DNA of 64,000 bases, taken from assembly GCA_035512495.1 (NCBI GenBank), contig DATKDW010000052.1, forward strand, positions 5,256-69,255, read 5' to 3'. How positions within the stretch are numbered: the stretch's first letter is position 1; each line of letters opens with the position of its first letter. Under the pieces are notes generated by a model that worked only from the letters and a program-made list of their open reading frames with translations, did no database searches and had not been told where the DNA came from. Positions 29,205 to 44,391 of the stretch are shown here, piece after piece. Source of the DNA: Acidimicrobiales bacterium (GTDB lineage: Bacteria; Actinomycetota; Acidimicrobiia; Acidimicrobiales; CADCSY01). Position numbers and translations under genes: made by a program.

Positions 29205-29276
29205 GCGCCTCTAGCTCAATGGCAGAGCAACGGACTCTTAATCCGCAGGTTCTGGGTTCGAATCCCAGGGGGCGCA
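29205..29276 (+). tRNA. tRNA-Lys (anticodon CUU); integration target of the adjacent element
   Basis: Acceptor gcgcctc/ggggcgc, D arm gctc-aatggca-gagc, anticodon loop ctcttaa, T arm ctggg-ttcgaat-cccag. Confidence 0.9.
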
Positions 29277-29314
29277 CTCACCGACACTGCTCTGACCAGG
29301 GCTTGTGCTGGTCC
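29234..29314 (+). repeat. attL-type direct repeat (3' 43 nt of tRNA-Lys plus 38 nt downstream)
   Basis: Identical to 39386-39466 except for one position (a at 29298 versus t at 39450). Confidence 0.9.
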
Positions 29315-29350
29315 GGGCGGCCGTCCGCGGTGCATCGGATGCGCGCCTGG

Positions 29351-29414
29351 CGCGTATCCGGGCGCGATACACCTCCCGATACACCTCCCGATACACCTGC
29401 GCGATGCACCTCGG
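29351..29414 (+). promoter_or_regulatory. arm-type repeat cluster next to attL (candidate Int/Xis binding sites)
   Basis: GCGCGTATCC at 29351, then four tandem ~12-bp units GATACACCTCCC / GATACACCTCCC / GATACACCTGCGC / GATGCACCTC starting at 29366, 29378, 29390 and 29403. Confidence 0.45.
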
Positions 29415-29514
29415 CGCTACCGTGGTCTCTGCGGTCGACGGCCCCGCGATCCATCGAGTCGTCCTTCTCATCCCCGCCTGCCAGGTCGGCAGGCGAGCGG
29501 CACAGGAGGACGCC

Positions 29515-31188
29515 ATGGCATCGCTAGGAGCGCGCTTCGAGGCACAGGTCGACCGGTCGGGCGAGCACCACCGCTGGCTCGGCGCCACCAACCCTGCCCG
29601 GGGAACGGGCCGGCTGAAGGTCGACGGCCGCCAGGTCACCGCCCACCGGGTGGCGTGGGAGCTTGCCCACGGGCCGGTACCGGCCGGCGCTCGGGTGCTG
29701 GCGTGCGACGAGGAGCCGGCCTGCGTGCGGCTCGACCACCTGAAGCTCGACGGCCCTGATGCGGCCGATGAGGCGCCCAAGCCCCGTGCCCGCAAGGGCA
29801 TGGGGTCGCTCCGCCGGTTGGGCCCGGGCAGGTGGAAGCTCACGGTCACCGGCACCCATGCCGACGGGACGACCGACCGCCTGTACCGGGTCGTCCACGC
29901 CGACACGGAGCAGGCAGCGCGCGCCGAGCAAGCCCGCGTCGTCACCGAGGTGCGGGCGGCCGACGGGACGACCCGCGCCGAGGCACATCGGGTCGACCTC
30001 GACGCCGCCGTGAAGCGCTTCCTCTACGAGCACCTCCTCGACGAGCGCGGCCGGGAGCCCAAGACGGTCGACGACTACTGGAAGCTCCACCGCCGGTGGT
30101 TCGCGCCGGCCCTCGGCCGCCGGCCCGTCCGCGACCTCACCCGGCCGATGTTCGACGCCCGCTTCGGCGAGATGCGCCGTGCCGGGTTGAGCCGGTCCCG
30201 GATGAACCAGGCCCGCAGCCTCTACGCCCCGCTCTTCCGCTGGGCGATCCACCAGGGCATGACGGCGAGGAACCCCATGAGCGGCTTCGAGCTGCCGACG
30301 AGCACCCATGTCGCTCGTGAGATCACGCCGCCGGAGGTGGAGGAGGTCGCCCTGCTCTTGGGCACAGCGTTCGAGGTCGTCCCCGAGGTCGCCGAGGTGC
30401 TCGTGCTCGGGGCGACGACCGGGATGCGCCGCGGAGAGCTGGTCGGCGTGCGCGAGTCGGTGCTCCGACTGGACGAGGGGTGCCTCCGGGTGACGACCGC
30501 CGTCTCCGGCAAGCGGGTCAAGCCGACGAAGACGCGCACCGAGCGCGACGTCGCCCTCGACGACGACACGGTTGCGATGCTCCGGCGCATCCTCCAGCAG
30601 CGGTACGAGCTGGCCGAGGCAGCAGGTGTCCCGATCGCCGAGGATCCTTACCTGTTCAGCGTGGCCGTCGACTCGTCGACGCCCATGTCACCCGACTACG
30701 TGACCAGGCGGGTGGCCGTGCTCAAGAGCCACCTCGGCATCGAAGCGAAGCGCCCCGAGACGATCGCAGCCGAGGACGAAGCACTGCGCCTGCATCGGGA
30801 GGCTCGCCGCCCGCGTCCCTCCGGGCGGACCGGGCCGACGCCGAAGGGCGGGATGTCGTTCGCCGAGATCGGGCGCTCGCTCGGTCGCAGCGAGCGGTGG
30901 GCGGCGATGGCGGTCGCTGCCGCCGAGCGCCGCGAGGCGTGGGCGCCGGCCGGAACGACGAGCCGGTTCGACGGTTCGGTGCTCGCGCTGCGCAAGTTCA
31001 CCTCGAGCGAGCTGCTCGACGCCGGCTTCAGCGTGAGTGCCGTCGCGCAACGGCAGGGCCACGGTCCACAGGTCCTCGTCAAGCACTACGGCAAGCGTCG
31101 CCTGTCCGCCGACCGGAAGGCAGCCGAGCACCTCGGAAGAGTCGTCCACCTCCCGCTTGCACCGACCAGGATGGATGCGAATGGCTGA
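29515..31188 (+). CDS. int: tyrosine-type site-specific integrase (long form, 557 aa)
   Basis: ATG 29515 is preceded by AGGAGG. N-terminal HNH_3-like module 'HHRWLGATN...AHRVAWELAHGPVP...CVRLDHL', core-binding region, catalytic 'LGATTGMRRGEL', 'ALRKF' and 'GHGPQVLVKHYGK' (Tyr nucleophile context). Confidence 0.85.
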   Translation: MASLGARFEAQVDRSGEHHRWLGATNPARGTGRLKVDGRQVTAHRVAWELAHGPVPAGARVLACDEEPACVRLDHLKLDGPDAADEAPKPRARKGMGSLRRLGPGRWKLTVTGTHADGTTDRLYRVVHADTEQAARAEQARVVTEVRAADGTTRAEAHRVDLDAAVKRFLYEHLLDERGREPKTVDDYWKLHRRWFAPALGRRPVRDLTRPMFDARFGEMRRAGLSRSRMNQARSLYAPLFRWAIHQGMTARNPMSGFELPTSTHVAREITPPEVEEVALLLGTAFEVVPEVAEVLVLGATTGMRRGELVGVRESVLRLDEGCLRVTTAVSGKRVKPTKTRTERDVALDDDTVAMLRRILQQRYELAEAAGVPIAEDPYLFSVAVDSSTPMSPDYVTRRVAVLKSHLGIEAKRPETIAAEDEALRLHREARRPRPSGRTGPTPKGGMSFAEIGRSLGRSERWAAMAVAAAERREAWAPAGTTSRFDGSVLALRKFTSSELLDAGFSVSAVAQRQGHGPQVLVKHYGKRRLSADRKAAEHLGRVVHLPLAPTRMDANG

Positions 31189-31495
31189 CCCGCTCCCGCG
31201 ACCGAAGGTGTGGCGACATCGCAAGCTCATCAGCGAACACGCCTTCGACAAGCTGCGCCTCCTCGACTGCACCTTGGCCGAGTTCGAGACCGCCATCGAG
31301 TCGGCCGAGATCATCGAAGCGGTCGAACTTCCAGGGGCCTCCGGAGCCGCGAAGGAGCTGGTGCTTGCCATCGAGTGGACGCGGCCGCTCCACCTCGTCG
31401 TCGTCGTCGACGACGACCGGGCAGAGGAGCGGATCGTCACCGTCTACGAACCGGACCCGCAACGGTGGTCCGGGGACTACCGTAGGAGGCGCTGA
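31181..31495 (+). CDS. DUF4258-family toxin-like protein
   Basis: 'KLISEHAFDKLRLLDCTLAEFETAIESAEIIE...RPLHLVVVVDDDRAEERIVTVYEPD' matches the DUF4258 pattern. The start overlaps the integrase stop by 8 nt. Confidence 0.75.
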   Translation: MADPLPRPKVWRHRKLISEHAFDKLRLLDCTLAEFETAIESAEIIEAVELPGASGAAKELVLAIEWTRPLHLVVVVDDDRAEERIVTVYEPDPQRWSGDYRRRR

Positions 31496-31737
31496 TGCGA
31501 TGCGAACGCTGTGATCAAGGCGAGCGTCGGCCCGTGAAGCGGGCAAAGCTCGCGGAACGCGACGGCAGGGTCGCTGTGGTGCTCGGCGTGCCGATGGAGG
31601 AGTGCCCTGCGTGCGCAGAGCGATGGCTCGCTTGGGACGTCGCAAAGCAGCTCGACGCTCTCCTGAGGGACATGCTCGCGGGCGATGTCGAGGTAGCGAC
31701 TCGGCACTACACGGCGAGCGATCTCCCGGCGGCATAG
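31495..31737 (+). CDS. YgiT/MqsA-type zinc-ribbon antitoxin-like protein
   Basis: 'MRCERCDQGE...VVLGVPMEECPACAERW' has a CxxC...CxxC zinc ribbon. The ATG overlaps the stop of the DUF4258 gene (TGATG). Confidence 0.75.
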   Translation: MRCERCDQGERRPVKRAKLAERDGRVAVVLGVPMEECPACAERWLAWDVAKQLDALLRDMLAGDVEVATRHYTASDLPAA

Positions 31738-31748
31738 AGGCCTCTTCC

Positions 31749-33043
31749 TCACCGGCCGATGCCCATCCCTCGGCTCCTGCTGGCCATCTCCTGGGCGGCC
31801 GAGCGGGCGACCGCGTCCCGAAGGGTCACGAGCCCGTCCGGCGGCTGGTGCCCGACGCCGTGGGCCTCGATGGCGTCGGCGTCGTCGCTGACGACGTAGA
31901 CGCGGTTCGCCATGCGGCCGCGGGAGAGGCCGGTGTAGGCCGCCTCGCGGTAGGACAGGTCGTCGACGAGGAGCAGGCCGACGTCCACCGTGGCGCCCTG
32001 TGCCTTGTGGACCGTGGTGGCGTAGCCGTGGGCGAGGTGCCCGGCGGCGAGGTAGCGGTGTCGCACCTCGACCGTCCGGCCTTCGCAGGTCTGGACGATC
32101 AACGCCTTGCGCTTGGGATCGACGGCGGTGACGGTGGCCCGGGTGCCGTTGAGGAGGCCCATGCGGTAGTCGTTGCGGCCGGCGATGACGCTGTCGCCCA
32201 CGGCGAAGGCTCGGCCGGCCACCTGGACCTCCTTCCCGGTGAGCAGGCCGGCCTCCACGAGCTGGTGGCGTGCCCGGCGGTTGAGGGCATCCACCTGGGA
32301 CCGACGGCCGGCGAGCATGAGCACGTCCTCCCCGGCGCCTCGGGCGGTCGCCCAGTCAGCGACCATCGCGTCGTAGACGTCGTCGCTGTTGTCGGCGACT
32401 CGAACCCGTCCGGCGGCGAGGTAGGCGTCGACGGCCTGGTTCGGGTTCCCATCGCGGAGGGCGGCGAGGGCGGTCTGCTCCCAGGCCTCGGCCTGCCGGC
32501 GGTTCTGACGGAGCGTCACCGAGCCGAGCTCCGCTCCGAGGGCGGCGAAGGCCCCGCCGGCGTTGATCTCCGGCAGCTGGCGGTGATCGCCGACCAGGAC
32601 GACCTTGGCCCGACTCTCGGCTGCGAGGTCGAGGAGCCGGGCGAGGTGGCGAGTACCGACCATGCCGGCCTCGTCGATGACGAGCACGTCGCCGGGCAGT
32701 CGGCCGCCGTCGCGCTCCACGGCGCGCAGCAGCCGGTCGATGGTCGACGATTCGATGCCGGAGCTTCGCTGCAGCTCGGCGGCCGCACGGGCGGCCAGGG
32801 CACAGCCGATGACCCGGTACCCGGAGGTCGCCCAGCGCCGGTGAGGGCGTTGAGCGCCCTCGCAACCGTGTCCTTGTTCAGAGACACGGCCGCACCGAGG
32901 CTCCTCACGCTGGCGCGCACGACGACCGCATCGCCATCCTGTTCGCGCTGGCCGAGCAAGAGCTCCTCGAGCACGAACCATGCCACGGGCCCAAGGTCCC
33001 GTCGCAGCGGCGCCGACCGCGCGTCGAGCTGGAGGGCGCTCAT
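31749..33043 (-). pseudogene. frameshifted RecD/TraA-like (AAA_30 + UvrD_C-type) SF1 helicase lacking a relaxase domain
   Basis: Frame 1 runs from ATG 33043 to about 32830 and ends '...SLNKDTVARALNALTGA'. An offset frame then continues 'WATSGYRVIGCALAARAAAELQRSSGIESSTIDRLL...VLVIDEAGMV...VLVGDHRQLPEI...TVHKAQGATVD'. One missing nucleotide near 32830 would join the two. The Walker A position reads SLNKDT instead of GxGKT. Confidence 0.6.
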
Positions 33044-33222
33044 GCCGTGTCCGAGCGCTCTGCCCGGAGCAGGTCGTCCAGGCAGCGCCGAGGGATGATG
33101 AGGCGCCGACCGAGCCGGATCGACGGGATCTCGCCCCGCCGCACGAGGTCATAGGCGAAGGCACGGGAGATGCCGAGAAGCCGTGCGGCTTCGTCGACGG
33201 TGAGCGTGAGCCGCTCGTCCAT
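33040..33222 (-). CDS. xis: excisionase-family helix-turn-helix DNA-binding protein
   Basis: 'LTVDEAARLLGISRAFAYDLVRRGEIPSIRLGRRLIIPR' is the classic excisionase/MerR-like HTH. GGAGGA lies upstream of the ATG. Confidence 0.85.
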   Translation of the reverse strand: MDERLTLTVDEAARLLGISRAFAYDLVRRGEIPSIRLGRRLIIPRRCLDDLLRAERSDTA

Positions 33223-33356
33223 CAGGATCCTCCGAACACAGAGGGGCGCGGGGCGCCGTCAGATGGAAGGAGCGCTGCACGGCCGGCTCCTCGACGACCT
33301 CAGGCGGTTGAGGGGCACCAGGTGATCCTGAGAGACCCTCCAGTCCACTAGGCCGT

Positions 33357-33503
33357 TCAGCGGACCAAAATCTCGCGCCAGAAGTGAGAATCCATCCGAG
33401 GCGTCATCGGGCTCGGAGCGGCCACAGCGCCGTCGGGTCGGGCGTCGATCAGGGCAGGCCCCACTGCTCCAGCCGCAGCAAGCAGCGCTTCCTCGTCAAG
33501 CAT
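33357..33503 (-). CDS. hypothetical small protein (48 aa)
   Basis: ATG 33503 is preceded by GAGG, 20 nt after the upstream gene's stop. No similarity recognised. Weak call. Confidence 0.3.
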   Translation of the reverse strand: MLDEEALLAAAGAVGPALIDARPDGAVAAPSPMTPRMDSHFWREILVR

Positions 33504-33523
33504 GACGACCTCAAAGGCAGCTG

Positions 33524-33883
33524 TCAGGTGTCGTCTCTGCGACCAGCGCTCTCGGCCCACCAATCGCGCTCCTCGCCTCGGTCGCGCATGTGTGCAAGCG
33601 CGGTCGCGGCCTGCAGCCACTGGCCGCCGCTCGATCCACAGAAGGTCCAGAGCTGCCCCGCAGCCCGCTTGTAGCGGTGGATCAGATCGTCGAGCTCGAA
33701 CTCGTCGATCTCGCCCGCATCAAGCAGGTCGAAGCCCTCGCGAACGTGCTCGAGCAACACCCGGAGCTGTTCCTGGTGGTAGGCCCCGACAATCGCACGC
33801 GCCTCGCGCCGCTTCGCCTTCTCGCTCGAAGCGTCAGGGGCACGCTCTTTCTCGGCCATGAAGTCTGAACGTAGTTCTGCCAC
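33524..33883 (-). CDS. hypothetical protein (119 aa), island-borne
   Basis: Protein-like composition ('AYHQEQLRVLLEHVREGFDLLDAGEIDEFELDDLIHRYKRAAGQLW'). No family recognised. The start may instead be the second ATG (33859). Confidence 0.5.
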   Translation of the reverse strand: MAELRSDFMAEKERAPDASSEKAKRREARAIVGAYHQEQLRVLLEHVREGFDLLDAGEIDEFELDDLIHRYKRAAGQLWTFCGSSGGQWLQAATALAHMRDRGEERDWWAESAGRRDDT

Positions 33884-33980
33884 ACCCTGAGACGCTCGCG
33901 AATGGCTGATCGGAAGAGGTGGGCCGCGCCGAGTATCGAAGGCACGTCGGTGCGGCGTCGCGGGACTTCGTTGGGGCCGG

Positions 33981-35114
33981 TCAGTAGACGATCAGGCGTG
34001 CAGGTTTGCGAAGTGCTTCGCCATTCTCCAGGTGGAGAACAATCACCCCTTCGTACTCGCCGGGTGGCAGGTCGATCGGCCCGAACGTGGCGTAGGCCAC
34101 GGTCCGGTCGGCGTCCGTGGTGTACCAGCGTTGGGCTCCGTCGATGAAGGTGCGCTCCGCAGCGGCGGGATCGCCCTCTGGGCGGAGAGTGAGCCGGGTG
34201 TCGGTGATGCGGACGGTGCAGGAACGCTGGACGGCAGCGATCGAGATGTAGGCGGAGGTTGTGTCGTTGCGGGAGACGCCTGCCTCGTCTGGCTGCTGGT
34301 CGACGGTAAGCGTTCCGGGGTCGCAGGCGGGAATCTGCGGCTCGAGACGGATCGGAAGGCTGGCAACACGGCCGTCGTGCTGAGGCACACGCAACTCGTA
34401 AGCCCCCGGCTTCGTGAACAGCTCGGCGGTGAACACGTCTTGGCGTGACTCCCCAGGGGCCAGGTCAACAGGCGCATGGCGGATCATTGGACAGGCAGGA
34501 CCCGTTCGGGGTGCCGGCTCCCCCTCAGCAGTGAAGAGCACCCCCGGGCCAGGACAGCGCTCGAAGATCATGGAGCAGGTCTCCGTGCCTTCGTTCGTGA
34601 CGGTCTCGACGTAGTCGGCCCGGCCGCCCGCTGCTGCGGCGATCTCATCGGGCGTGCCCGTCGTGGCCCAGACGGTCTGGCTGCGAAGGCCCTGGCAGTT
34701 CTCACCGTCCGGTGGATCGACGATTTCTGACACGGTTCCCACACGAGCCGGCGCTGCGGGCGTCGTGGAGGACGTTGTGGTCGCTGCCGTGGTTGTAGTT
34801 GTTGTCGTCTCGTCCGGGGTCTCTGTAGCTGCGCTGGTCGGTGCTGTCGAGGTTTCTGGCGCCGTGCTCGCTTCGTCATCGGCCGAATCGGCGACGGTCT
34901 CGAGGCTGGAGGAGCTTCCGGTGGTGGCGAGGACCGCGACGAGGCCAGCGACGAGCAGGAGGACCGCTGCAGCGGCGAGCACGACGGGACCCCGCCTGGC
35001 GTCTGAGGCCCACGAGGTCTTCCGGCGTTGATGGAGTCGTACGTCGTCGATCGGGATCGGGTCGTCGATGTCTTCACTCCAAGCTCGGATCTGCGGTTCG
35101 AGATCGTCGGTCAC
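33981..35114 (-). CDS. anti-sigma-like single-pass membrane protein with Thr/Ser-rich linker and two Cys-containing DUF4232-like extracytoplasmic domains
   Basis: Short cytoplasmic N-terminus, TM 'VVLAAAAVLLLVAGLVAVLA', linker 'ETTTTTTTAATTTSSTT', then two modules with the pattern C...N.G...C (for example 'PACDPGTLTV...RSCTVRITD'). Start overlaps the stop of the sigma-like gene (ATGA). Confidence 0.65.
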   Translation of the reverse strand: MTDDLEPQIRAWSEDIDDPIPIDDVRLHQRRKTSWASDARRGPVVLAAAAVLLLVAGLVAVLATTGSSSSLETVADSADDEASTAPETSTAPTSAATETPDETTTTTTTAATTTSSTTPAAPARVGTVSEIVDPPDGENCQGLRSQTVWATTGTPDEIAAAAGGRADYVETVTNEGTETCSMIFERCPGPGVLFTAEGEPAPRTGPACPMIRHAPVDLAPGESRQDVFTAELFTKPGAYELRVPQHDGRVASLPIRLEPQIPACDPGTLTVDQQPDEAGVSRNDTTSAYISIAAVQRSCTVRITDTRLTLRPEGDPAAAERTFIDGAQRWYTTDADRTVAYATFGPIDLPPGEYEGVIVLHLENGEALRKPARLIVY

Positions 35115-35455
35115 AGGACCACCCCCAGTCGTTGACGAAGTGCGGTCACGCCTCGCTCGACATGGCTCTGCACCGTGGACTTTGTGACCCCGAGCACCTC
35201 GGCCGCCTCGACGAAGGACCAGCCGTAGCCATGCACCAAAGCGACAGCGGATCGCTGCTTCGTCGGCAGCGCTGCCAGCGCGGACGGGAGACCCGGCTCG
35301 TATCTCGTCTCTCCGTCACTGATCGGCGCGCCGAGCCATCCTTGACGGCGTCGACGGGCCTTGGACTGCCCGACGCGGTAGAGGTAGCCGACTTCGTTGT
35401 CCAATGACCGCAACCGATCCCGGTCGCCGCCCGACGCAGGTTCGGCCCGCCACAC
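35111..35455 (-). CDS. sigma-70/ECF-family fragment retaining only the linker and region 4 (N-terminally truncated)
   Basis: 'GYLYRVGQSKARRRRQ' matches the end of region 2, and 'LPTKQRSAVALVHGYGWSFVEAAEVLGVTKSTVQSHVERGVTALRQRL' matches the region 4 HTH. No region 2.1-2.2 lies upstream. Confidence 0.6.
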   Translation of the reverse strand: MWRAEPASGGDRDRLRSLDNEVGYLYRVGQSKARRRRQGWLGAPISDGETRYEPGLPSALAALPTKQRSAVALVHGYGWSFVEAAEVLGVTKSTVQSHVERGVTALRQRLGVVL

Positions 35456-35641
35456 CTACAGATTCTGCCTCTCTTCTGCCATCTCGAGTCGCTGCTCCAC
35501 TGAGACAAGCCGCTCTTCAAGCTCAGGATCGCGCCGCCCGGTGAACCAGAGCACCAACGCGATGATCATGAGAACAGGCGAGAGGAAGTAGGCGACTGTC
35601 TGCAACCCAGCAAGATCCACGACTACCTCCGAGGCTGTCAT
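35456..35641 (-). CDS. hypothetical small single-TM protein (61 aa)
   Basis: TM 'VAYFLSPVLMIIALVLWF' followed by a charged helix. Its stop abuts the start of the sigma fragment. Confidence 0.4.
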   Translation of the reverse strand: MTASEVVVDLAGLQTVAYFLSPVLMIIALVLWFTGRRDPELEERLVSVEQRLEMAEERQNL

Positions 35642-35892
35642 CGGCCGTGGTCAAGATTGGCCTCGACCCTTTCTTATCATTTCGGCACCGACCCCCTGAT
35701 GTCCTTGTAGGAACCCCTTCGCGGAGCCTGTCTTTCTAATCGCGCAGGCACCGAGTGGACGGGCCGGGCATCGCCGGACGCTGCGCACCGAGTCCGCGCC
35801 GACCTGAGAATCGCGAGCGGTCAGCTGCCACGTGCGGCTGGCCATTCCCGCACCATCAAGCGGCACGTAGGGGCGGTCATCCCGGAGCGCGC

Positions 35893-36471
35893 TCAGTTGT
35901 CGTAGCGGCCAGTCAGGGTCGTCGCGAGTTCGAGCAGCTGGCCCCGGCTGATTCCTGACTGGTAGGCCGTGAGTCCGAAGTTGTCGCCTTCGTCGTTGAC
36001 CAGCACGGAAACGGCCCCGTCGATGCGTGGTTCTTCACTGGGTCGGGAGTAGGTCGCCGCCAGCCCAGGCGTGTCGAGAATCTCCACGTCATCTCCCCAC
36101 GCGCTTCGGAACGTCTCGATATCCGGGAATCTGCCGAAGTTCAGCTGAACGATGATCGCAGCATCCCCGCCGACAGCCCGATAGATGCAGTGCTGCCCCG
36201 CCGCTGCGTCGACCATCGGGATGTCTTCATCGGGGATCCGCTCACCTTCGCTCTCGGCGAACTCGACGAATCCAACCTCGGCGACCTCTGCCCCGAACAG
36301 CTCACTTGCATCAGCTTCTCGAAGCAGTCCGCAAGGGCCGTCGAGCGCGACTTCCTCACCTGAGTCGCTACAGCCGGCCGCTCCGAGCACCGCCAGTAGT
36401 GCTCCCAGACCGACCGCTCGCTGCCATCTGGTTCGAAGCATGCTTGGAGCCACGGGGTACGGATTCGACAT
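35893..36471 (-). CDS. hypothetical lipoprotein
   Basis: Signal peptide with lipobox 'LLAVLGAAGC'. No family recognised. Confidence 0.65.
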   Translation of the reverse strand: MSNPYPVAPSMLRTRWQRAVGLGALLAVLGAAGCSDSGEEVALDGPCGLLREADASELFGAEVAEVGFVEFAESEGERIPDEDIPMVDAAAGQHCIYRAVGGDAAIIVQLNFGRFPDIETFRSAWGDDVEILDTPGLAATYSRPSEEPRIDGAVSVLVNDEGDNFGLTAYQSGISRGQLLELATTLTGRYDN

Positions 36472-36631
36472 CAGACTCGTGCAATCCTCCTCATCGGGTA
36501 CTGCCTATCGCTGACAGCGGTGTGCCTCCGCGCGGTTCCCGGCTCGAGGGCGTCCGCGCCACGCCGATCAGGCTTGGTCGCGTGCGGCTACCACATCCGG
36601 AGAACCGGCTTGCGTCGCCGCCACCGAGCAC

Positions 36632-37252
36632 TTATGTATCGAGTGAGACCTCGTCCCAGTCCTCGCTCGATAGGAGCCACTCGAGTGCTCGACGTCGTTC
36701 CACGATTGCCAGCGGCACTGCACGGGAGCTCCAAGCCGTCCCCCTAAGCGTCGCTTCGACAACGCCCCAGTGAAGACAGAAGGCAAGGTCGAGCGCAGCG
36801 ATCAGCTCGGCCTTGCTTCGGAGGTGAGCACGCGTCACCGCAGCCTCAACACCCTGCGGATCAGGGGGAGGGTGCGGCACCGCCTTCACCAGGTGATTCG
36901 GTGCTTCGACTGTGAAGTCGAGCGCGTCGGGAATGAGCTGGACCGCCCAGGCAAGAGCAAAAATCGCTTCGGGTCGGGCCGCCTCCTCGTCGTCCGGCGA
37001 GTGAGCCTCTGCGAGTAGGTACGCAACCTCGGTATCCGACAGCGCCTCGTCGAGACCTTCACCCGCGACCCAAGCTCGAGCGACGGCGGGCTGACATCCG
37101 TACGCGGTCGCGGCGACTGCTGACAGCACGCCGATGCGGCGCACGACGGCGTCAGTCGATCTCGGACGGAGTCCGCCATCGAGGAGTGGGAAGTGCTCGG
37201 GAGGCGTAGCAGCACCGACTTCCTGCACATCGGCCAGCGACTTCGCACGCAC
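36632..37252 (-). CDS. DUF4272-like protein (start uncertain)
   Basis: C-terminal 'CLHWGVVEA...IVERRRALEWLLSSEDWDEVSLDT' resembles the DUF4272 signature as I recall it. Candidate GTG starts lie at 37252 and 37288. Confidence 0.5.
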   Translation of the reverse strand: MRAKSLADVQEVGAATPPEHFPLLDGGLRPRSTDAVVRRIGVLSAVAATAYGCQPAVARAWVAGEGLDEALSDTEVAYLLAEAHSPDDEEAARPEAIFALAWAVQLIPDALDFTVEAPNHLVKAVPHPPPDPQGVEAAVTRAHLRSKAELIAALDLAFCLHWGVVEATLRGTAWSSRAVPLAIVERRRALEWLLSSEDWDEVSLDT

Positions 37253-37508
37253 CTCACGGAGCTTCGGCCGACGTCGCAACACCCGCACAGATTGCCGGTT
37301 GAGCCAGCGTCGCCGCCACTGCGAACTGGGTGATCGGAGCGGTCGCGTCCAGATGGCGCTCCGAGGCCACCAACACACGGCACCTCGGCGCGTCCTCTAC
37401 CCGGTGATGGGGGCACATCGCAGTGCGGCTCCACGACCAGGACGTCGTGCTTCCGGCGTTGTGGCACCTTGCTGCGACGTAACCACCGACGGCGGGAGAC
37501 GAGACCGC

Positions 37509-38882
37509 CTACGCGCCGGCGCTGGGGGCGATGTTCGGGTTCAGGTGGAAGATGTTGTCGGGGTCGTAGCGGCGCTTCAGCTCAACCAGGCGCTCCCAGC
37601 ACGGGCCGTAGGCGGCGCGCACTCGGTCGGTTTCGTCGTCGCCCAGGTAGTTCATGTACACGGAGTCGGCCATGTACGGCGCGAGCTCTTGGAACGTCTC
37701 GCGCACCCAGGCGATGTTGGCCTCGTCGCCGCCCGGGTCGGGCCAGACGCCTGCCATCACGAGGTTGTAGCCCGGTTCGCGATGCGGGAACGCGGTGGCG
37801 GTGGCCGGCACGCGGCTGACCGCGCCGTGTAAGTGCTCGATGACCATGCCGGTCATGATCGACGGTGTCTTCTCGAACGCCTCGGCCATTAGGGCGACTG
37901 TGTCAGAGGAGATGTCCTTGAAGAACGCGGACTTCCAGTAGTTGCGGGCGCCCTTCGGGAAGCCGTCGTCGAGCAGCGTGTTCTGCACGGGATATGGGAG
38001 GGGCCCGAGCATGTCCATCAGTGGCGTGGCCGCGGAGCGGAGAGCGTTCGCCGCCTTCTCACCCTCCTCGAGATCGCCGCAGTGGCACATGGCCATGGCA
38101 GCGATCTTGTGACCGGACCCGTCGGGGGCGTGAGTCATCGCCATCACCATGACCAGCTCGTCGGGGTTCTCGGCCGAGAACTCTCCGAAGAACTCCCACA
38201 CCTTCGGTGCGTCGGCGAGCGCAAACGCGATGAGGCCGCCATAAACCATGGACACCGGGTGTGCGTCGTACTCGAACGAGGACGCCACACCGAAGTTACC
38301 GCCGCCGCCCCGGACCGCCCAGTAGAGGTCGGCGTCTTCCACGGCGCTCGCGGTGCGGATGTCTCCTTCGGCCGTGATGAGCTCGACCGATCGGACGTTG
38401 TCGACGGCCATGCCGTACTTGCCCATCAGCCACCCGAGGCCGCCGCCCAACGTGAGCCCAGCGATGCCGGTCGTCGAGATCATGCCTCCGGTCGTGGCCA
38501 ACCCGTAAGCGTGGGTGGCCCGGTTGTACTCGTTCCACGTGAGTCCGGCCTGGGCGCGAACTGTGCGGCTCTTCGGGTCGACATGGAGCCCCTTCATCGG
38601 TTGCACGTCGATCATCAGCCCGCCTTCGGTGACGGCTCGGCCCGCAACGTTGTGACCGCCCCCGCGGCTCGAGATCTCGAGATCATGCTCGCGGGCGAAC
38701 TTCACCGCATCGGCGATGTCGGCGGTGTTCTGGCAGCGCACGATCAGCGAGGGTCGCTTGTCGATCAATCCGTTGTGGACCTGCCGGACGTCGTCATAGG
38801 CCACGTCGGAGGCGGTCAGCACCTGACCGGAAAGCCCAGCCCGGAGCTGGTCGAGTGACTCCTGAGGAATCGATCCACTCAT
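37509..38882 (-). CDS. FAD-binding oxidoreductase (PCMH-type FAD domain with C-terminal BBE-like domain)
   Basis: 'PSLIVRCQNTADIADAVKFAREHDLEISSRGGGHNVAGRAV...' and C-terminal 'YMNYLGDDE...RLVELKRRYDPDNIFHLNPNI'. Confidence 0.88.
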   Translation of the reverse strand: MSGSIPQESLDQLRAGLSGQVLTASDVAYDDVRQVHNGLIDKRPSLIVRCQNTADIADAVKFAREHDLEISSRGGGHNVAGRAVTEGGLMIDVQPMKGLHVDPKSRTVRAQAGLTWNEYNRATHAYGLATTGGMISTTGIAGLTLGGGLGWLMGKYGMAVDNVRSVELITAEGDIRTASAVEDADLYWAVRGGGGNFGVASSFEYDAHPVSMVYGGLIAFALADAPKVWEFFGEFSAENPDELVMVMAMTHAPDGSGHKIAAMAMCHCGDLEEGEKAANALRSAATPLMDMLGPLPYPVQNTLLDDGFPKGARNYWKSAFFKDISSDTVALMAEAFEKTPSIMTGMVIEHLHGAVSRVPATATAFPHREPGYNLVMAGVWPDPGGDEANIAWVRETFQELAPYMADSVYMNYLGDDETDRVRAAYGPCWERLVELKRRYDPDNIFHLNPNIAPSAGA

Positions 38883-39263
38883 GACGTATCTGCCCCCATA
38901 TAAGTTTGGCTCGGGTCCCCCACAGACGCGGTGTTCCCGTCTCCGGAGGAGGACCGTGCGTTACAACCGTTACACCCTGAACCCTAACGCTGTGCGTCTT
39001 GCGACGCGGCCGGGCGTGTAGCCCACCGTCGACGACGGTCCCGGCGGAGCCTGCCCTCTGTCGACCACTCACAATCGCCCGCTCTCGCAGATCCGTCGTG
39101 AGATGCGGCCCGTTGACTGCAGCCTGACGCGACCCATCTCGAAGCGCAACACATCCAGACATGGGACACCGACGCCTTCGGTGAGGTAAGTCCGCGCGAT
39201 TGCCGGCTCGCGCGCTTCCAAGGCCAGCGCGACTGAATGATCGGACCTCAGCGCCGCTCCTTG

Positions 39264-39308
39264 GCGCGTATCCAGGCGCGTATCCCTGTGCTACAAGGTG
39301 TATCGGGA
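39264..39308 (+). promoter_or_regulatory. arm-type repeats next to attR
   Basis: GCGCGTATCC occurs twice (39264 and 39276). AGGTGTATCGGGA at 39296 is the reverse complement of the GATACACCT units next to attL. Confidence 0.4.
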
Positions 39309-39385
39309 AGGACAGGATGGACGAGCGAGCAGACGAAAGCGCAGGTCAGAGCACTGCAGCGCTCTCGGTGGACGCTCCAGGGCCA

Positions 39386-39466
39386 ACTCTTAATCCGCAG
39401 GTTCTGGGTTCGAATCCCAGGGGGCGCACTCACCGACACTGCTCTGACCTGGGCTTGTGCTGGTCC
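39386..39466 (+). repeat. attR-type direct repeat (partial tRNA-Lys copy, not a functional tRNA)
   Basis: 80/81 identical to 29234-29314. The sequence 5' of it does not fold into a D arm or anticodon stem. Confidence 0.9.
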
Positions 39467-39502
39467 TGTGCAATGCGCCGATGCCTGACTCATGCTGGCC
39501 GT

Positions 39503-39607
39503 GTGCGGCGCATCTCGGTGGTGGGAAACTCAGGCTCGGGGAAGACGACCCTGGCGCGCTGCACAAGACCCGGCCCCCCCTCGGCAAACTCGGTGCCTAC
39601 TGGTTGA
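39503..39607 (+). pseudogene. remnant of a small P-loop NTPase gene (only the first ~19 codons are recognisable)
   Basis: GTG-initiated 'VRRISVVGNSGSGKTTLAR' is a typical N-terminus of small kinase-like ATPases. It is followed by non-protein-like sequence and an early stop. Confidence 0.35.
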
Positions 39608-39610
39608 CGG
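39571..39610 (+). repeat. left copy of an imperfect ~40-bp inverted repeat
   Basis: 'ccccctcggcaaactcggtgccTACtggttgacgg' versus the reverse complement of 40534-40575, 'ccccctcggcaaactcggtgccCGAtggttgacgg'. Confidence 0.7.
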
Positions 39611-39966
39611 TGAGACGAGTGGATGGTGCCGGGAAGCGGTGCACCCACGTCCCATCCTTGCGGTTGCGCTCCCGCATGGCCGCTCACGCGAACCTCTGTG
39701 CCCGCCGAACGTGACGGAACGGCCCATTGAGCGGATCTCCAGCGTCGTAGTCGTCGCCTCGGATAGCCCTCATGAACGCATCCGCCTGCATGGCGGTCGC
39801 CACAGCCCTTTCCCCCGGTGCGAGCCCGTGACCTGGTGCGCTCACGATTCGAGGGGCGCCAGCGGGAGCGTCCGAGAGGTCTTCAGCAGGACACGGCTTC
39901 CTAACCCGGACCGTTCAAAGGGCGCGCCTATCCGCTCGAGTCCTAAGCGAGCGAGGACCGGTCGCT

Positions 39967-40359
39967 CTAGCCCTCGAGGCGCTCCTTGAGAGCGACGAGG
40001 CCCTGATCGAACATCGGCTCCAGCGCAGGACCGATCTCATCGGGGGTCACCTCGGTGACCCACGTGACGGTCGACGACCCGTCGTTGTCGGCGACCTCCA
40101 TCGTGGCGCGGTGGCTATCGATCGGCATCGGTGCGGTGGTGATCGTGTACTCGAGCCGCCTGTTCGCGTCGTCGACGCTGGTGATCTCCTCCTCGAGGTC
40201 ACCACCGCCTTCCATCGTGCACTGCCGGTTGCCGTTGTCCAGCTTCTTCGATGCCGACAACGCCGGGAGCCAGTCGGCGATGTTGTAGACGTCGCCGACG
40301 ACGTTCCAGACCTCGCCCGGTGAACGGTCGATCTCGATGGTCTTCTCGATGCGTGCCAT
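39967..40359 (-). CDS. SRPBCC-family (polyketide cyclase/dehydrase-like) protein
   Basis: 'MARIEKTIEIDRSPGEVWNVVGDVYNIADWLPAL...RLEYTITTAPMPIDSHRATMEV' is a START/Bet v1-like pattern. Confidence 0.85.
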   Translation of the reverse strand: MARIEKTIEIDRSPGEVWNVVGDVYNIADWLPALSASKKLDNGNRQCTMEGGGDLEEEITSVDDANRRLEYTITTAPMPIDSHRATMEVADNDGSSTVTWVTEVTPDEIGPALEPMFDQGLVALKERLEG

Positions 40360-40533
40360 GGTGGCTTGCCCCCCTGTGTTTACGGTGCCCCGACGTTAGC
40401 CACTATCCGCGGACGAGGTGATCGGCTTCCTCAGCGTCCGCCGAACGGACATGGCGGCACATCACCGCTGCTCGTGAACCTGCCTCCTACGCGTCCCCCA
40501 TGCCACTTACTGCACGCCCTGGGGGGGCGTCTA

Positions 40534-40575
40534 CCGTCAACCATCGGGCACCGAGTTTGCCGAGGGGGCCCGGCC
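40534..40575 (-). repeat. right copy of the imperfect inverted repeat
   Basis: See 39571-39610. The two copies bracket the SRPBCC gene. Confidence 0.7.
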
Positions 40576-40650
40576 CATTCGCATCTCCACTTCGTGCTGC
40601 TGTGCTCGCGTGCGGAAGTCGACGCCTTTCTCGCCGCGGCCAATTGACGG

Positions 40651-41631
40651 TCACCGGGCCGGAGGGGTTCCGACGTGGTTGCGACGGCCAGGCGCGATCC
40701 GTGGCACGACTCGCAGGTACACCACGATGCCGAGGAGTTCGACCAGCGACTGGAACACCACGACCACCGCTGCCGCCGACCAGGGACCCGGGAGCGCCAG
40801 CGCGAGTGGTAGGACCACGAACGAGTTGCGGGTCCCGGCACTGAAGATCAGCGTGCGGGTGGCCGGCGGTTCCAGACGAGCGACCGCGGCGATCCCTCGG
40901 CCGAGAACGAGTGCTGCGACGAGGAACCCGAGATAGATCACGCCGACCCGTCCGAGGATCTCGACCGAGTCGGTCACGACCGACGCCTGAGACGCGGCGA
41001 TGAGGAAGACCACGGTCGCGACCAGCACCACCGGCAGCGCAGAGAGCCGCGGGAGCAGTCGACCCGTCGGCTCATGACGCTCCGCTCGTCGCTGCGTCAC
41101 CCATGCGGCGACGAGCGGGACGACGATGAGGGTGACGAAGACGGTCACCGCAGTGCGAAGTCCGGTGAGCTCTCCGAAGGACTCCCCGACCAGCACGCGC
41201 ACGTACACCGGCAGCAGGAACAGCTGCACGGCGAGCAGGACCGGGGTCACCGCGAGGGCCCGTCTGGTGTCGCCGCCGCCCAGGTGGCTGAACGTGAGGA
41301 ACCAGTCGGTGCAGGGCATCACCAGGACCAGCACCACACCGAGACGTACCGCTGGATCGTCGGGGGCGAGCGGCAACAGTGCCCACACCACCACGGGCAG
41401 CACCGCGAAGTTGGTGACCAAGACGGTGATGACGAACCGCGCGTCGCGCACGACGCCGGGTACGTGCGCAAGCGGCATCTGGAGGAAGGTCACGTACAGG
41501 AGCAGACCGAGCGACGGCCACACCGCCACCTCCACGGCATCGCCGATGCTGGGAGCAGCGAGGCCCAGCGCAAGTCCTGCGGTGATCGCGCTCAGGTACA
41601 GCCAGACCTGATGTCGCTCCAGATGCTGCAT
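40651..41631 (-). CDS. ACR3 / bile-acid:sodium-symporter-fold transporter (arsenic-resistance-protein-like)
   Basis: About 10 TM segments. 'LYVTFLQMP', 'MPCTDWFLTF' and 'FSAGTRNSFVVLPLALAL' are typical of the SBF/ACR3-like fold. Substrate is not inferable. Confidence 0.7.
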   Translation of the reverse strand: MQHLERHQVWLYLSAITAGLALGLAAPSIGDAVEVAVWPSLGLLLYVTFLQMPLAHVPGVVRDARFVITVLVTNFAVLPVVVWALLPLAPDDPAVRLGVVLVLVMPCTDWFLTFSHLGGGDTRRALAVTPVLLAVQLFLLPVYVRVLVGESFGELTGLRTAVTVFVTLIVVPLVAAWVTQRRAERHEPTGRLLPRLSALPVVLVATVVFLIAASQASVVTDSVEILGRVGVIYLGFLVAALVLGRGIAAVARLEPPATRTLIFSAGTRNSFVVLPLALALPGPWSAAAVVVVFQSLVELLGIVVYLRVVPRIAPGRRNHVGTPPAR

Positions 41632-41748
41632 CGTTCCAGAGTGTCACCGCCCCGTGCCCGATCGGTATGCCGGCAGCTCAGCAGTCACGATGCGACTCTG
41701 ACCGCGCCGGGGCCGGCCCGCGCTCCCGGCCGGGGTCCCGTGCCCTGC

Positions 41749-41775
41749 ATGCCATGTCCGTGGCATACTCATGCC
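41749..41775 (+). promoter_or_regulatory. operator-like ATGCCA/TGGCAT repeats and leaderless-type -10 upstream of the antitoxin gene
   Basis: ATGCCA (41749-54) -N6- TGGCAT (41761-66) -N4- ATGCCA (41771-76). CATACT at 41764-41769 ends 7 nt before the A of the ATG at 41776. Confidence 0.35.
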
Positions 41776-42012
41776 ATGGCCCGGGAACGAGTGAGCACGA
41801 CCGTTGACGGAGATCTTCTCGCGGAGGCGCGGGCGCGCCAGGCGGGACTGAATGACTCCTCCCTGTTCGACGCGGCGCTTGCAGCTCTGGTCCGCGCAGG
41901 TCGCGCAGCCGAGATCGACGCCGCCTATGCCGCGTACGACGAACACCCACTCGCCGAAGCGGACGAGTGGGGCGATCTTGCATCCTTCCGGGACGCGAAT
42001 GCGGCCTCGTGA
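41776..42012 (+). CDS. type II antitoxin (ribbon-helix-helix / MazE-like)
   Basis: 'MARERVSTTVDGDLLAEARARQAGLNDSSLFDAAL' is an RHH-like N-terminus. The stop overlaps the toxin start (GTGA). Confidence 0.75.
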   Translation: MARERVSTTVDGDLLAEARARQAGLNDSSLFDAALAALVRAGRAAEIDAAYAAYDEHPLAEADEWGDLASFRDANAAS

Positions 42013-42338
42013 CCGGCGTTCCTGAGCGGGGCGAGGTCTGGTGGTGCGAGCTGCCGGATGTCGGTCGGCGGCCAGTCGTCGTGCTGTCCCGCGACGCGGC
42101 CATCCCACGACTGCACCGAGCGCTGGTCGGACCGTGCACCACGACGATTCGCGGCCTGCCGAGCGAGGTCGTTCTCGAGCCGGGCGACGACCCGGTGCCC
42201 CGTCGGTCTGCCGTCAACCTGGACTCGCTCGAGAGCGTCAGCATCGGCGTTCTCGTCGAGCGGCTCGGACGACTGAGTGACGACCGAATGGAAGAGGTCT
42301 GCGACGCCGTGGCCATTGCAGTCGATTGCCGACGCTGA
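42009..42338 (+). CDS. mazF: PemK/MazF-family endoribonuclease toxin
   Basis: 'PERGEVWWCELPDVGRRPVVVLSRDAAIPRL...TTIRGLPSEVVLEPGDDPVPRRSAVNLDSLESV' is the MazF/PemK signature. Confidence 0.85.
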   Translation: MTGVPERGEVWWCELPDVGRRPVVVLSRDAAIPRLHRALVGPCTTTIRGLPSEVVLEPGDDPVPRRSAVNLDSLESVSIGVLVERLGRLSDDRMEEVCDAVAIAVDCRR

Positions 42339-42475
42339 CGAGCCGCACCAACGGCCGGGGCTTGCGGCGACGAGCGGACCACGTCGCGATCGGGCAATCT
42401 CTACGGGTGGCAACCGCCACCATGGCGACGAGCGGGGGCGAGCGTGGTCGAGGTTCGCAGAGCCAGCACGGGTGT

Positions 42476-42775
42476 TTAGCGCTGAGGATGCTCACGTCGA
42501 TGGAGACGCGCCACAAGATGCAGAGCGAGCCGCACTACTACCTGCCCTTCATCGGTACCGACCCTGACCACCGGGGCAAAGGCCAGGGGACCGCTCTGCT
42601 CGCCGACATGTTGCTTCGTTGCGACGAAGAGGGCATGCCCGCGTATCTGGAATCGACGAGGATCGAGAACCGGGCGCTCTATCACCGCCACGGCTTCCAG
42701 GTCCTCGACGAAATGCACTGGCCCAGGGGCGGCCCCCCTTGGTGGCCGATGTGGCGAAAGCCTCGGGCCACCTGA
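42476..42775 (+). pseudogene. GNAT N-acetyltransferase, C-terminal fragment only
   Basis: 'METRHKMQSEPHYYLPFIGTDPDHRGKGQGTALLADMLLRCDEEGMPAYLESTRIENRALYHRHGFQV' covers motifs A/B only. I could not read the N-terminal ~100 aa of a normal GNAT in any frame upstream. Confidence 0.55.
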
Positions 42776-42864
42776 CCGACTTCTACGAAGCCGAGCTCAG
42801 CGGAGACTTCGACTGTGTCTGTTACCTACCACAGGCGCGGCCCGAGTCCCGTACCATCCCCTCC

Positions 42865-43854: not shown

Positions 43855-43950
43855 TCGGAAGTCGTCGGGCCTGCCTGCTGATCGCGGGCGCTTCTGACCT
43901 TCACCGTGGCGGAGCGGCGCGTCGCTGGGCATCGGCACGTAGGGGCGGCA

Positions 43951-44391
43951 TCACGAGGGCGCGGGCGGTGACCACCGAGAGCCGTCAGTTCCTGGCAGGA
44001 CGGTGACTGCGATCTGCTCGTGATGGCACGCATCCAGGAGCGCCGGGTCAGAGGTTGCGAGCGGTCGGTCGATGCGTCGGGCGACTTCGGCTGCCATGCA
44101 GTCCGCCAGGCTGATCGGACAACGTGTTCGGTGGTAGCGGCGAGCACGGAAGCGGCCGGCCGCTGAGGCCACCTCGCCATCAATCACGACGGCGTCGTCA
44201 AGACCCAGCTGCGCGAGGTCAAGGCTGGCTTCCTCTTCATCGGCCCCTCCGAGCCGAACAAGGTGGTCGATCACCTCGGCGACTCCGACTGCCGTCAGTG
44301 CACCGCCGGCATGGATGAGATCCTCGACTTCGCCGGCAGCCGCTTCGTCCTTGAGGAACGCAAGTACCGCGTAGGCGTCGAGGATCGTCAA
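43951..44391 (-). CDS. vapC: PIN-domain ribonuclease toxin (VapC-like)
   Basis: 'ILDAYAVLAFL...AVGVAEVIDHL...ISLADCMAAEVA...LATSDPALLD' carries PIN acidic residues. The start overlaps the antitoxin stop. Confidence 0.85.
   Translation of the reverse strand: MTILDAYAVLAFLKDEAAAGEVEDLIHAGGALTAVGVAEVIDHLVRLGGADEEEASLDLAQLGLDDAVVIDGEVASAAGRFRARRYHRTRCPISLADCMAAEVARRIDRPLATSDPALLDACHHEQIAVTVLPGTDGSRWSPPAPS

Follow-up and report, generated by a model that had tools for sequence, protein, structure and literature searches.

Integrative and mobilizable elements (IMEs) are small, integrate in tRNA genes and encode a relaxase without a mating apparatus. The AICEs (actinomycete integrative and conjugative elements) are also small and tRNA-integrated, and carry an int/xis pair. 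Islands that retain only an origin of transfer (oriT) and depend on helpers have been reported to be frequent (bioRxiv 10.64898/2026.01.13.699239). Here we describe an island in a 64,000-nt stretch of contig DATKDW010000052.1 (assembly GCA_035512495.1, positions 5,256 to 69,255; hereafter the window, with coordinates counted from its first nucleotide). A 10.2-kb segment of the window is a real mobile island inserted in the tRNA-Lys(CUU) gene of an uncultured Acidimicrobiales bacterium. We consider it likely that this site-specifically integrated island descends from a small MobF-type IME of uncultured Acidimicrobiia, and that it is crippled in its relaxase and most likely still excisable.

The island is bounded by an 81-nt direct repeat (29234-29314 and 39386-39466), identified by repeat search, with a spacing of 10,152 bp. 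The copies are identical at 80 of 81 positions, the single mismatch being A at 29298 versus T at 39450. It is by far the longest direct repeat within 28-41 kb, and a sensitive blastn-short scan detected no third copy or degenerate remnant across the 64-kb window. The left copy, which we refer to as attL (left attachment site), comprises 44 nt of the 3′ part of an intact tRNA-Lys(CUU) gene (29205..29277, +) and 37 nt beyond the tRNA 3′ end. This tRNA was identified by ARAGORN and matched Rfam RF00005 at 69.2 bits over the full-length model, and its sequence is identical in L002, one of the relative loci fetched for comparison (these carry L-numbers; for example, L001 is GCA_030447445.1 and L165 is GCA_973786505.1). 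The anticodon is at 29237-29239, and the repeat starts 3 nt 5′ of it. The 37-nt tail can be read directly as holding a GACCAG/CTGGTC hairpin, in whose stem the mismatch sits. Repeat search, blastn-short and Rfam agree that the right copy (attR) has the tRNA 3′ part only and lacks the 5′ half. The Rfam scan of the window returned tRNAs and no other RNA families. Two features of a tRNA-integrated island were looked for and found: one copy of the repeat supplies the 3′ end of a complete tRNA gene, and a recombinase gene adjoins the attachment site, 201 nt from attL. An earlier note on this DNA, made from the letters alone, had proposed the same repeat pair with the same mismatch, its course from the anticodon loop through the tRNA 3′ end and beyond, and a tyrosine integrase about 200 nt inside the left repeat that reads away from the tRNA. 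The repeat search, ARAGORN and Rfam (with a measured overhang of 37 nt) and the integrase ATG at 29515, 201 nt after the repeat, bear this out.

Just inside both ends of the island we identified short repeats that represent putative arm-type integrase binding sites. The int-proximal (P′) arm (29350..29412, +) has GCGCGTATCC followed by a 12-nt-phased array of three CGATACACC and one CGATGCACC, reported by TRF as a period-12 array. The distal (P) arm (39263..39356, +) has two GGCGCGTATCC with a 12-nt period (39263-39285), an inverted CGATACACC (39297-39305) and GCAGGTCAGAGCACTG (39341-39356), the last being an inverted near-copy of 39437-39452 within the 81-nt repeat. Across the 64 kb, CGATACACC matches four times and GCGCGTATC three times (0.25 and 0.62 matches expected by chance), and every one of these matches is no more than ~130 nt from an end of the island. 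The int-proximal motifs occur at the equal position in L001, L002 and L165, and the divergent L003 has a CGATACC variant. Both predicted arms are intact in the window island, with their repeats confined to the island ends and conserved in relatives.

In L165, the region 7834-8360 joins a right-end-type arm, the tRNA-Lys 3′ part and an int-proximal arm in an attP-like junction, which ARAGORN called as a 69-nt pseudo-tRNA-Lys. The junction parts a window-like element from a module with a 1,081-aa (amino acid) TrwC relaxase, a 232-aa open reading frame (ORF) and a 69-aa HTH_17 gene, and shares the GCAGGTCAGAGCACTG motif with the distal arm of the window. It is either a tandem array or an excised or plasmid form; the contig is 36.9 kb, of which part was examined. 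The joined arms support the view that the end regions of the window island are the P and P′ arms of a lambda-type attP.

The integrase gene (29515..31188, +) encodes 557 aa, with matches to Pfam HNH_3 and Phage_integrase and an ATG start after AGGAGG, and points away from the tRNA. Across 20 aligned members of the integrase family, R305, K336/K339, R493, H516 and Y525 do not vary; all 20 have Leu490 in place of the first His (HxxR box), leaving five of the six catalytic positions canonical. With respect to the features of heterobivalent recombinases, the R-K-H-R-H/W-Y set was thus found in five of six positions, and both flanking arm repeats and, in the structure model, a predicted arm-binding-like domain are present.

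The other conserved module of the island is an operon on the opposite strand, of which the window retains a damaged copy. Its first gene encodes an excisionase-family HTH_17 protein of 60 aa (33040..33222, −; Pfam HTH_17 1.2e-16; TIGR01764 “excise” 51.6 bits), which is 62-65% identical to full-length counterparts in L002 and L165. In intact relatives, HTH_17, a ~190-aa ORF (171-192 aa) and a relaxase form a tightly overlapping operon in this order. The relaxase of these relatives has 839 aa with TrwC and AAA_30 domains, and the L160 copy matches the MobF model NF041492 at 249 bits (cutoff 100). Among annotated proteins, its nearest relatives are MobF relaxases encoded on plasmids of Nocardia, Corynebacterium and Gordonia (30-34% identical). 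In the window, tblastn and blastn comparisons with L002, L160, L162 and L165 revealed a pseudogene at 31749..32834 (−) that consists of the 3′ 354 codons of the MobF relaxase-helicase (equivalent to aa 479-832). Its AAA_30 match begins at profile position 41, and both the TrwC relaxase domain and the Walker A motif, located at aa 462-469 of the intact copies (GAAGTGKT), are absent. The N-terminal TrwC domain with catalytic Tyr and His motifs that defines MobF is accordingly missing from the window copy, as the remnant starts at the equivalent of aa 479. The first ~70 codons of the ~190-aa ORF also persist (32831..33043, −), detected by tblastn with the 192-aa protein of L002 (residues 1-70, 55% identity).

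Alignments of DNA and protein with the four relatives place the junction of a ~1.8-kb internal deletion at 32835..32855: window positions 32834/32856 correspond to 17522/19344 in L002, 7636/9463 in L160, 6459/8274 in L162 and 4165/2356 in L165. These alignments show a clean ~1.8-kb deletion that took with it the relaxase domain, the Walker A motif of the helicase and the greater part of the ~190-aa ORF. Inspection of the junction for microhomology found nothing clear. The remnant has 354 codons without an internal stop and a ratio of nonsynonymous to synonymous substitution rates (dN/dS) of 0.19-0.25, compared with 0.12-0.22 among intact copies. As the remnant is still open and its dN/dS is near that of the intact copies, the deletion is recent on that timescale. 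Because the relaxase domain and Walker A are deleted, self-mobilization is predicted to be lost in the window copy. A 471-aa ORF spanning 31749-33164 was considered as a genuine helicase and rejected: its first ~110 codons are an out-of-frame read through HTH_17 and the remnant of the ~190-aa ORF, and it lacks Walker A.

The closest subclade of relatives, with integrases 75-80% identical to that of the window, consists of L002/L164, L160/161, L162 and L165. Common to all of them are int, variable cargo, the 839-aa MobF relaxase, a 171-192-aa ORF and the 60-aa HTH_17 gene, which together form the backbone. The gene order of L165 is that of the window (int, DUF4258, 80-aa ORF, intact relaxase, 182-aa ORF and HTH_17), at ~78% nucleotide identity. 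The cargo of relatives includes restriction-modification systems, toxin-antitoxin (TA) pairs and a pPIWI-associated nuclease. Two relatives are bounded in the available sequence, L114 (tRNA-Gln, ~9.5 kb) and L168 (tRNA-Glu, 9.9 kb). The latter (GCA_023264975.1, 6622-16557) is a complete element with a 44-nt exact repeat from the anticodon loop of tRNA-Glu(CUC), spaced 9,892 bp. It carries a conventional 390-aa integrase, a DUF433/PIN TA pair, HTH_17 with a 175-aa ORF and the 839-aa relaxase, and two ABC ATPases; no transfer apparatus (mating-pair formation, type IV secretion system (T4SS), FtsK-type Tra or Rep) was found in it. Based on the composition of L168, the natural vehicle of the relaxase cassette is a ~10-kb IME, with the cassette modular relative to the integrase, and we take L168 as evidence, from gene content, for modular exchange between integration and mobilization modules.

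These relatives place the island among known element classes. A relaxase of its own, as IMEs have, is encoded by L002, L160, L162, L165 and L168 and no longer by the window island. Genes for mating-pair formation, T4SS or coupling proteins, which IMEs lack, are absent from the ORFs of the window island and from L168. The earlier note had listed an excisionase-type HTH gene, a TA pair and a decayed helicase inside the repeats; these correspond to HTH_17 at 33040-33222 (−), the DUF4258 and YgiT-finger genes at 31175-31737 (+) and the sequence at 31749-32834 (−), the last now sharpened to the 3′ 354 codons of a MobF relaxase-helicase. Its statement that capsid, terminase and FtsK/Tra-type genes are missing agrees with our Pfam, NCBIfam and PHROGs scans of the island ORFs, and repeat anatomy, gene content and relatives all concur with its overall assignment to a tRNA-targeting integrative element that is neither a prophage nor a complete AICE or ICE (integrative and conjugative element).

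The excision module of the island looks intact: int and HTH_17 are undamaged, as are the two arms and the cores (80/81 identical). Judging from these genes and sites, the island is probably still able to excise as a 10,152-bp circle. The alternative that we weighed here is that of a fixed remnant, incapable of any excision, in which int and HTH_17 are intact only since inactivation was recent (e.g., by loss of expression or of a host factor). One large deletion has already occurred, and a sigma-factor fragment and the gene-poor region 35.5-36.6 kb suggest ongoing decay. Moreover, dN/dS between the window integrase and its relatives (0.17-0.23) is slightly higher than among the relatives themselves (0.13-0.15), and evidence for attP or attB was not found in the collections searched. 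However, the integrase is full-length with all family-invariant catalytic residues, HTH_17 is full-length, the cores and the arm repeats on both sides are preserved, and dN/dS is well below 1. We therefore regard an inert relic as rather unlikely.

A second alternative concerns mobilization, namely that the island has kept a functional oriT and is transferred by a related MobF relaxase and a mating apparatus acting in trans. In the relatives, a ~200-nt non-coding block lies upstream of the HTH_17-relaxase operon (L164 8500-8770, L160 9821-10135, L162 8638-8950 and L165 1700-1991). It is better conserved than the flanking proteins and has two CCTAGTAGG motifs separated by ~90 nt; we regard it as a candidate for the oriT, or else an operator, of this IME family. 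When the upstream regions were aligned, the window showed a conserved promoter-proximal region with one diverged CCTAGTAGG copy (33223..33360, −), which is a possible operator or oriT remnant. The persistence of this region and motif counts in favor of such a hitchhiking island. Closely related relaxase cassettes are common in Acidimicrobiia (2,022 matches at E ≤ 1e-20) and stand side by side in the L165 contig, and the reported frequency of oriT-only islands (bioRxiv 10.64898/2026.01.13.699239) also speaks for it. Nevertheless, most of the conserved ~200-nt region is replaced or diverged in the window, the oriT is a candidate only, and no helper is visible in the 64-kb window. We thus see transfer in trans as a minor possibility, and favor a relaxase-crippled descendant of an IME.

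Several observations weigh against this preferred reading. The usual His of the HxxR box is Leu across the whole integrase family. The HTH_17 protein may be a regulator or a relaxosome accessory rather than an excisionase, because it accompanies the relaxase also where the integrase is of another type (L168). Of the ~200-nt upstream block, the window keeps only the proximal ~75 nt and one diverged CCTAGTAGG motif. We searched the available sequence of the tRNA-Lys relatives for attR and found none, which leaves the window island as the sole tRNA-Lys example with both boundaries. Finally, no empty attB, attP junction or excised circle was found, the host relatives in GTDB being too distant (≤64% identity in the trigger factor, Tig). 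In detail, the syntenic Tig gene identified 76 loci in GTDB genomes, all of them in metagenome-assembled genomes (MAGs) of Acidimicrobiia and at ≤64% identity. The tRNA-Arg/His/Lys cluster is not near Tig in these 76 loci, among which only L075 has a tRNA-Lys(CUU) without an integrase, in a context that is not comparable. Synteny from tig to tRNA-Lys is kept only in L002, where the site is occupied by a related element. An exact 26-nt pattern of the att flanks had zero matches in metagenome and viral contigs, and look-ups of the exact integrase and flanking SRPBCC proteins returned no record.

The remaining explanations fare much worse. That the island is a prophage or phage-satellite remnant that lost its structural genes is highly improbable: the integrase and HTH_17 do match PHROG integrase and excisionase families and the integrase N-terminus resembles phage HNH endonucleases, but these are the only PHROGs matches in the island, family scans of the island gave no matches to capsid, terminase, portal, primase or repressor proteins and no other gene for virions, packaging or phage replication, the integrase family is absent from IMG/VR (2.9 M contigs) and has no full-length relative in INPHARED, and its relatives carry a conjugative MobF relaxase. 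An AICE, or a complete ICE with unrecognized transfer genes, would suit the actinobacterial host, and AICEs share the small size, tRNA integration and int/xis genes; this is nonetheless scarcely credible, since no FtsK/SpoIIIE-type Tra, no Rep (RepSA, RepAM or prim-pol) and no T4SS component was detected in the island ORFs scanned (Pfam, NCBIfam and PHROGs) or in L168, the att-bounded island has no VirB4, type IV coupling protein or other mating-pair-formation gene and at 10.2 kb has no room for them, and the conserved DNA-processing gene is a MobF relaxase, typical of single-stranded DNA conjugation. An assembly artefact, in which contigs misjoined at the repeated tRNA sequence produced the repeat and the 10 kb, could be imagined for a metagenome-derived contig, given that the Logan contigs L160-L163 all break inside the att sequence, but it is very unlikely indeed, as the copies differ at one base, the flanks are distinct, attR is without the tRNA 5′ half, matching arm motifs (one of them inverted) lie just inside both ends as expected for an attP split by integration, and the int-next-to-tRNA-Lys arrangement recurs in independent assemblies.

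Based on the above, the history of the island may be reconstructed as follows. A heterobivalent tyrosine integrase would have recombined attP with the anticodon-loop region of tRNA-Lys(CUU). The attP would have carried the tRNA 3′ part with arm-type sites on both sides, such that integration restored a complete tRNA at attL, with only part of it duplicated at attR. This step is suggested by the 81-nt repeat together with the unbroken tRNA, by the arm repeats and by the conserved pairing of integrase and target. tRNA-targeting integrases use anticodon-stem sequences as core sites, and these sequences would likewise serve as core sites for this integrase. HTH_17 would act as the recombination directionality factor, yielding the 10,152-bp circle and a restored attB. 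In the ancestor, which presumably had the HTH_17, ~190-aa ORF and MobF operon, the relaxase would have nicked oriT after excision, and the mating apparatus of a helper would have exported the strand; the intact relatives, and the complete 9.9-kb relative without a transfer apparatus, argue for this. The present copy would be unable to mobilize in cis, and at best could be mobilized in trans by a related relaxase, if oriT survives.

The integrase itself has an unusual architecture. The AlphaFold2 model (pLDDT, the predicted local confidence score, of 73.5) has a tyrosine-recombinase fold, for which the best PDB matches identified by Foldseek were Tn1549 Int, lambda Int and XerA. Residues 1-80 are modeled as an HNH_3-like beta-beta-alpha module and residues 98-148, with moderate confidence, as an arm-binding-like three-strand sheet plus helix. 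A helical core-binding domain comes next, and then the catalytic domain. Within the latter, a conserved helical insertion of ~75 aa (~410-485; the additional helices are at 414-479) separates the beta-hairpin from the R493 box. The N-terminus shares 31-40% identity with phage HNH endonucleases, and Pfam HNH_3 also matches it. When aligned with gp76 of Arthrobacter phage Hestia, the integrase has “LA” in place of the catalytic “DH”, is without the C-terminal helix that bears the Asn, and retains the Cys/His knuckle. Given the replaced catalytic His, the missing helix and the retained knuckle, the module is probably nuclease-dead and acts in DNA binding. A survey of His-Me-finger proteins groups HNH_3 with homing endonucleases, inteins and AP2 proteins. 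A sequence search of the PDB with the N-terminal 160 aa returned nothing significant, and the published classification of tyrosine recombinases contains the term “HNH” 0 times and mentions neither an HNH module nor the helical insertion.

Homologs of the integrase (~550 aa, 55-79% identical) form >500 clusters at 90% identity, and all are from metagenomes or from MAGs labeled Acidimicrobiales or Actinomycetota. No members were detected in IMG/VR, and no full-length relatives in INPHARED phages or PLSDB plasmids. In L001-L003 the integrase is directly 3′ of tRNA-Lys(CUU), in the same tRNA-Arg(−)/His/Lys cluster. We surveyed the targets in 80 metagenome loci, of which 46 had upstream sequence. 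Among these 46, the integrase neighbors tRNA-Lys(CUU) in 31 and other tRNAs in six (Gln in three, Met in two and Lys-UUU in one), and nine had no tRNA call. The family is restricted to uncultured Acidimicrobiia and, judging from these neighborhoods, is predicted to target mostly tRNA-Lys(CUU). The architecture of the integrase and the size of this uncultured-only family are the most unusual aspect of the island.

We tentatively suggest that the integrase could be the first example of an abundant and so far undescribed subgroup of tyrosine recombinases of the arm-binding type, in which a nuclease-dead module homologous to phage HNH(-AP2) homing endonucleases is fused to an arm-binding domain and accompanied by a conserved helical insertion in the catalytic domain; at present we would call this possible rather than probable. 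If true, such a subgroup would represent a surviving intermediate in the proposed origin of integrase arm-binding/AP2 domains from homing endonucleases. It would then also characterize the principal family of mobilizable islands specific for tRNA-Lys(CUU), by which restriction-modification, TA and defense cargo is shuttled among the poorly known Acidimicrobiia.

Two further observations were made around this target site. In L001 (196-2557; GCA_030447445.1), a second integrase of 394 aa with Arm-DNA-bind_4 and Phage_integrase domains is located, with an HTH_17 gene, at the 3′ end of the neighboring tRNA-Arg(UCU), adjacent to the tRNA-Lys island, and for this reason the Arg/His/Lys tRNA cluster appears to be a double integration hotspot. 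Four independent Logan contigs with close integrase relatives (L160, L161, L162 and L163) have their position 1 at the equivalent of window 29248-29250, inside att/tRNA-Lys. Such starts are consistent with breaks of the assembly graph at the duplicated att, or with mixed populations of occupied and empty sites.

The other genes of the island were called by third-position GC bias (genome 71% GC), followed by family searches in Pfam, NCBIfam and PHROGs. Overlapping the int stop codon is a gene for a 106-aa DUF4258 protein (31175..31495, +; Pfam 26.2 bits, cutoff 25), a putative type II toxin with 73% identity to its L165 counterpart at the same position. It abuts, at 31495, the gene for an 80-aa YgiT-type zinc-finger protein (31495..31737, +; TIGR03831 22.9 bits, cutoff 20.2). 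This putative antitoxin is of the MqsA N-terminal type and lacks the HTH half of MqsA; it is 83% identical to the L165 counterpart and is also present in L001 and L002. Adjacent small genes matching both families, as expected of a type II TA system, were thus found, and the pair is kept in L165. The pair probably stabilizes the island, favoring retention.

The right-hand cargo begins with a GC3-supported ORF of 119 aa (33524..33883, −) that has no family match in Pfam, NCBIfam, PHROGs or PADLOC. A 377-aa protein with a Thr/Ala-rich linker (33981..35114, −) had no significant family match; its start overlaps the stop of the upstream sigma-factor fragment, and by position it is possibly an anti-sigma-like membrane protein. 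The sigma-factor fragment, of the extracytoplasmic function (ECF) type (35111..35455, −), retains region 4 only (Pfam Sigma70_r4_2); of the 162 positions of the TIGR02983 profile it covers 48-158, lacking about the first 47. Further cargo genes encode a 248-aa DUF4272 protein (36632..37378, −; Pfam 1.2e-29) and a 457-aa FAD-linked oxidase of the BBE type (37509..38882, −; Pfam FAD_binding_4 4.7e-34 and BBE). PADLOC detected no credible defense system in the cargo.

The GC profile across 28-41 kb, proposed in the earlier note as a check on the island, set it apart from the host only in part. The right-hand ~6 kb of cargo is indeed low in GC (0.63-0.67), but the region from int to HTH_17 (29.3-33.3 kb; 0.70-0.74) is like the host (0.71-0.75), and the low GC does not end at attR and persists to ~46 kb, ~6.5 kb beyond it. 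Within the island, the right-hand cargo alone looks compositionally foreign.

The region past attR (39467-46200; GC 0.65-0.69) has accessory-type genes, encoding an SRPBCC protein, an SBF-family transporter, MazF/PemK, GNAT, a 411-aa protein of no assigned family, a MazE-like protein, a beta-lactamase-family protein and YjbR. It may be older island material at the same tRNA hotspot; no older att remnants or arm motifs were found in the low-GC DNA at 39.5-48 kb. Just outside attR, a 36-nt inverted repeat (39576-39611 and 40533-40568; 33 of 36 positions complementary, unique in the window, 0 expected by chance) flanks a 130-aa gene of the SRPBCC/polyketide-cyclase type (39967-40359, −). This repeat might be the boundary of a cassette or of an element like a miniature inverted-repeat transposable element (MITE). 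Elsewhere in the window, a direct repeat of 35 nt with a single mismatch (60446-60480 and 62303-62337) forms another att-like pair. It consists of the 3′-terminal 25 nt of tRNA-Leu(UAG) (62313-62396, −) and 10 nt beyond, and brackets ~1.86 kb of low-GC DNA (0.61-0.68). As the bracketed DNA encodes only a 605-aa trypsin-like serine protease (60484-62301, −) and no integrase, it resembles a minimal island, or what is left of one, at a different tRNA gene.

The island does not overturn current understanding; its type is already known, and it is otherwise an ordinary example. Its value is as a clean and fully bounded reference for accessory gene acquisition in uncultured Acidimicrobiia, with attL, attR, both arms, an integrase and an excisionase-type gene. 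It also shows an IME at the moment of losing self-mobilization: the 1.8-kb deletion responsible can be dated, and the relaxase gene that it struck otherwise remains open. The relatives reveal a modular system, in which one cassette of HTH_17, ~190-aa ORF and MobF is combined with different integrases and tRNA targets, and whose elements carry restriction-modification, TA and pPIWI-type cargo. For annotation, the ~550-aa integrase and the arm motifs could be used to delimit islands in Acidimicrobiia MAGs. A possible evolutionary point is the HNH-derived N-terminus of the integrase.

The recombination module of the island is most similar to lambda Int and the integrases of Tn916/Tn1549. They share the fold, the catalytic R/K/R/H/Y residues, the predicted three-strand-plus-helix domain before the core-binding domain, arm-type repeats on either side of the core and an accessory small HTH protein. 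Unlike these, the window integrase adds an N-terminal HNH_3-like module with the catalytic His replaced, and its family differs from lambda-type integrases by the ~75-aa helical insertion, the Leu in the HxxR box and a length of ~550 aa versus ~350-400 aa.

As a whole, the island is best compared to the MobF-family IMEs. It resembles them in size (~10-12 kb), in tRNA integration with a direct repeat, and in the combination of a tyrosine integrase with an excisionase-type HTH protein; its intact relatives have a single relaxase gene, no mating-pair-formation genes and TA, restriction-modification or defense cargo. The window copy differs in having no relaxase domain, and thus does not encode the relaxase that IMEs possess. 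Characterized IMEs also differ from this group in their hosts, here a clade of uncultured Acidimicrobiales, in integrase architecture, and in the relaxase, which is only ~30-34% identical to annotated MobF proteins. With the iOriT-type islands (bioRxiv 10.64898/2026.01.13.699239) the island has in common that it is att-bounded, encodes an integrase, lacks a functional relaxase or transfer apparatus and is related to relaxase-bearing elements. However, its relaxase loss is a visible recent deletion and not a stable lifestyle, and its oriT is at most a candidate. Finally, AICEs of the pSAM2 type resemble the island in their actinobacterial host, integration at a tRNA 3′ end, small size and int/xis pair, whereas the island has no FtsK-like TraB, rolling-circle Rep or spread genes and carries, or once carried, a MobF relaxase.

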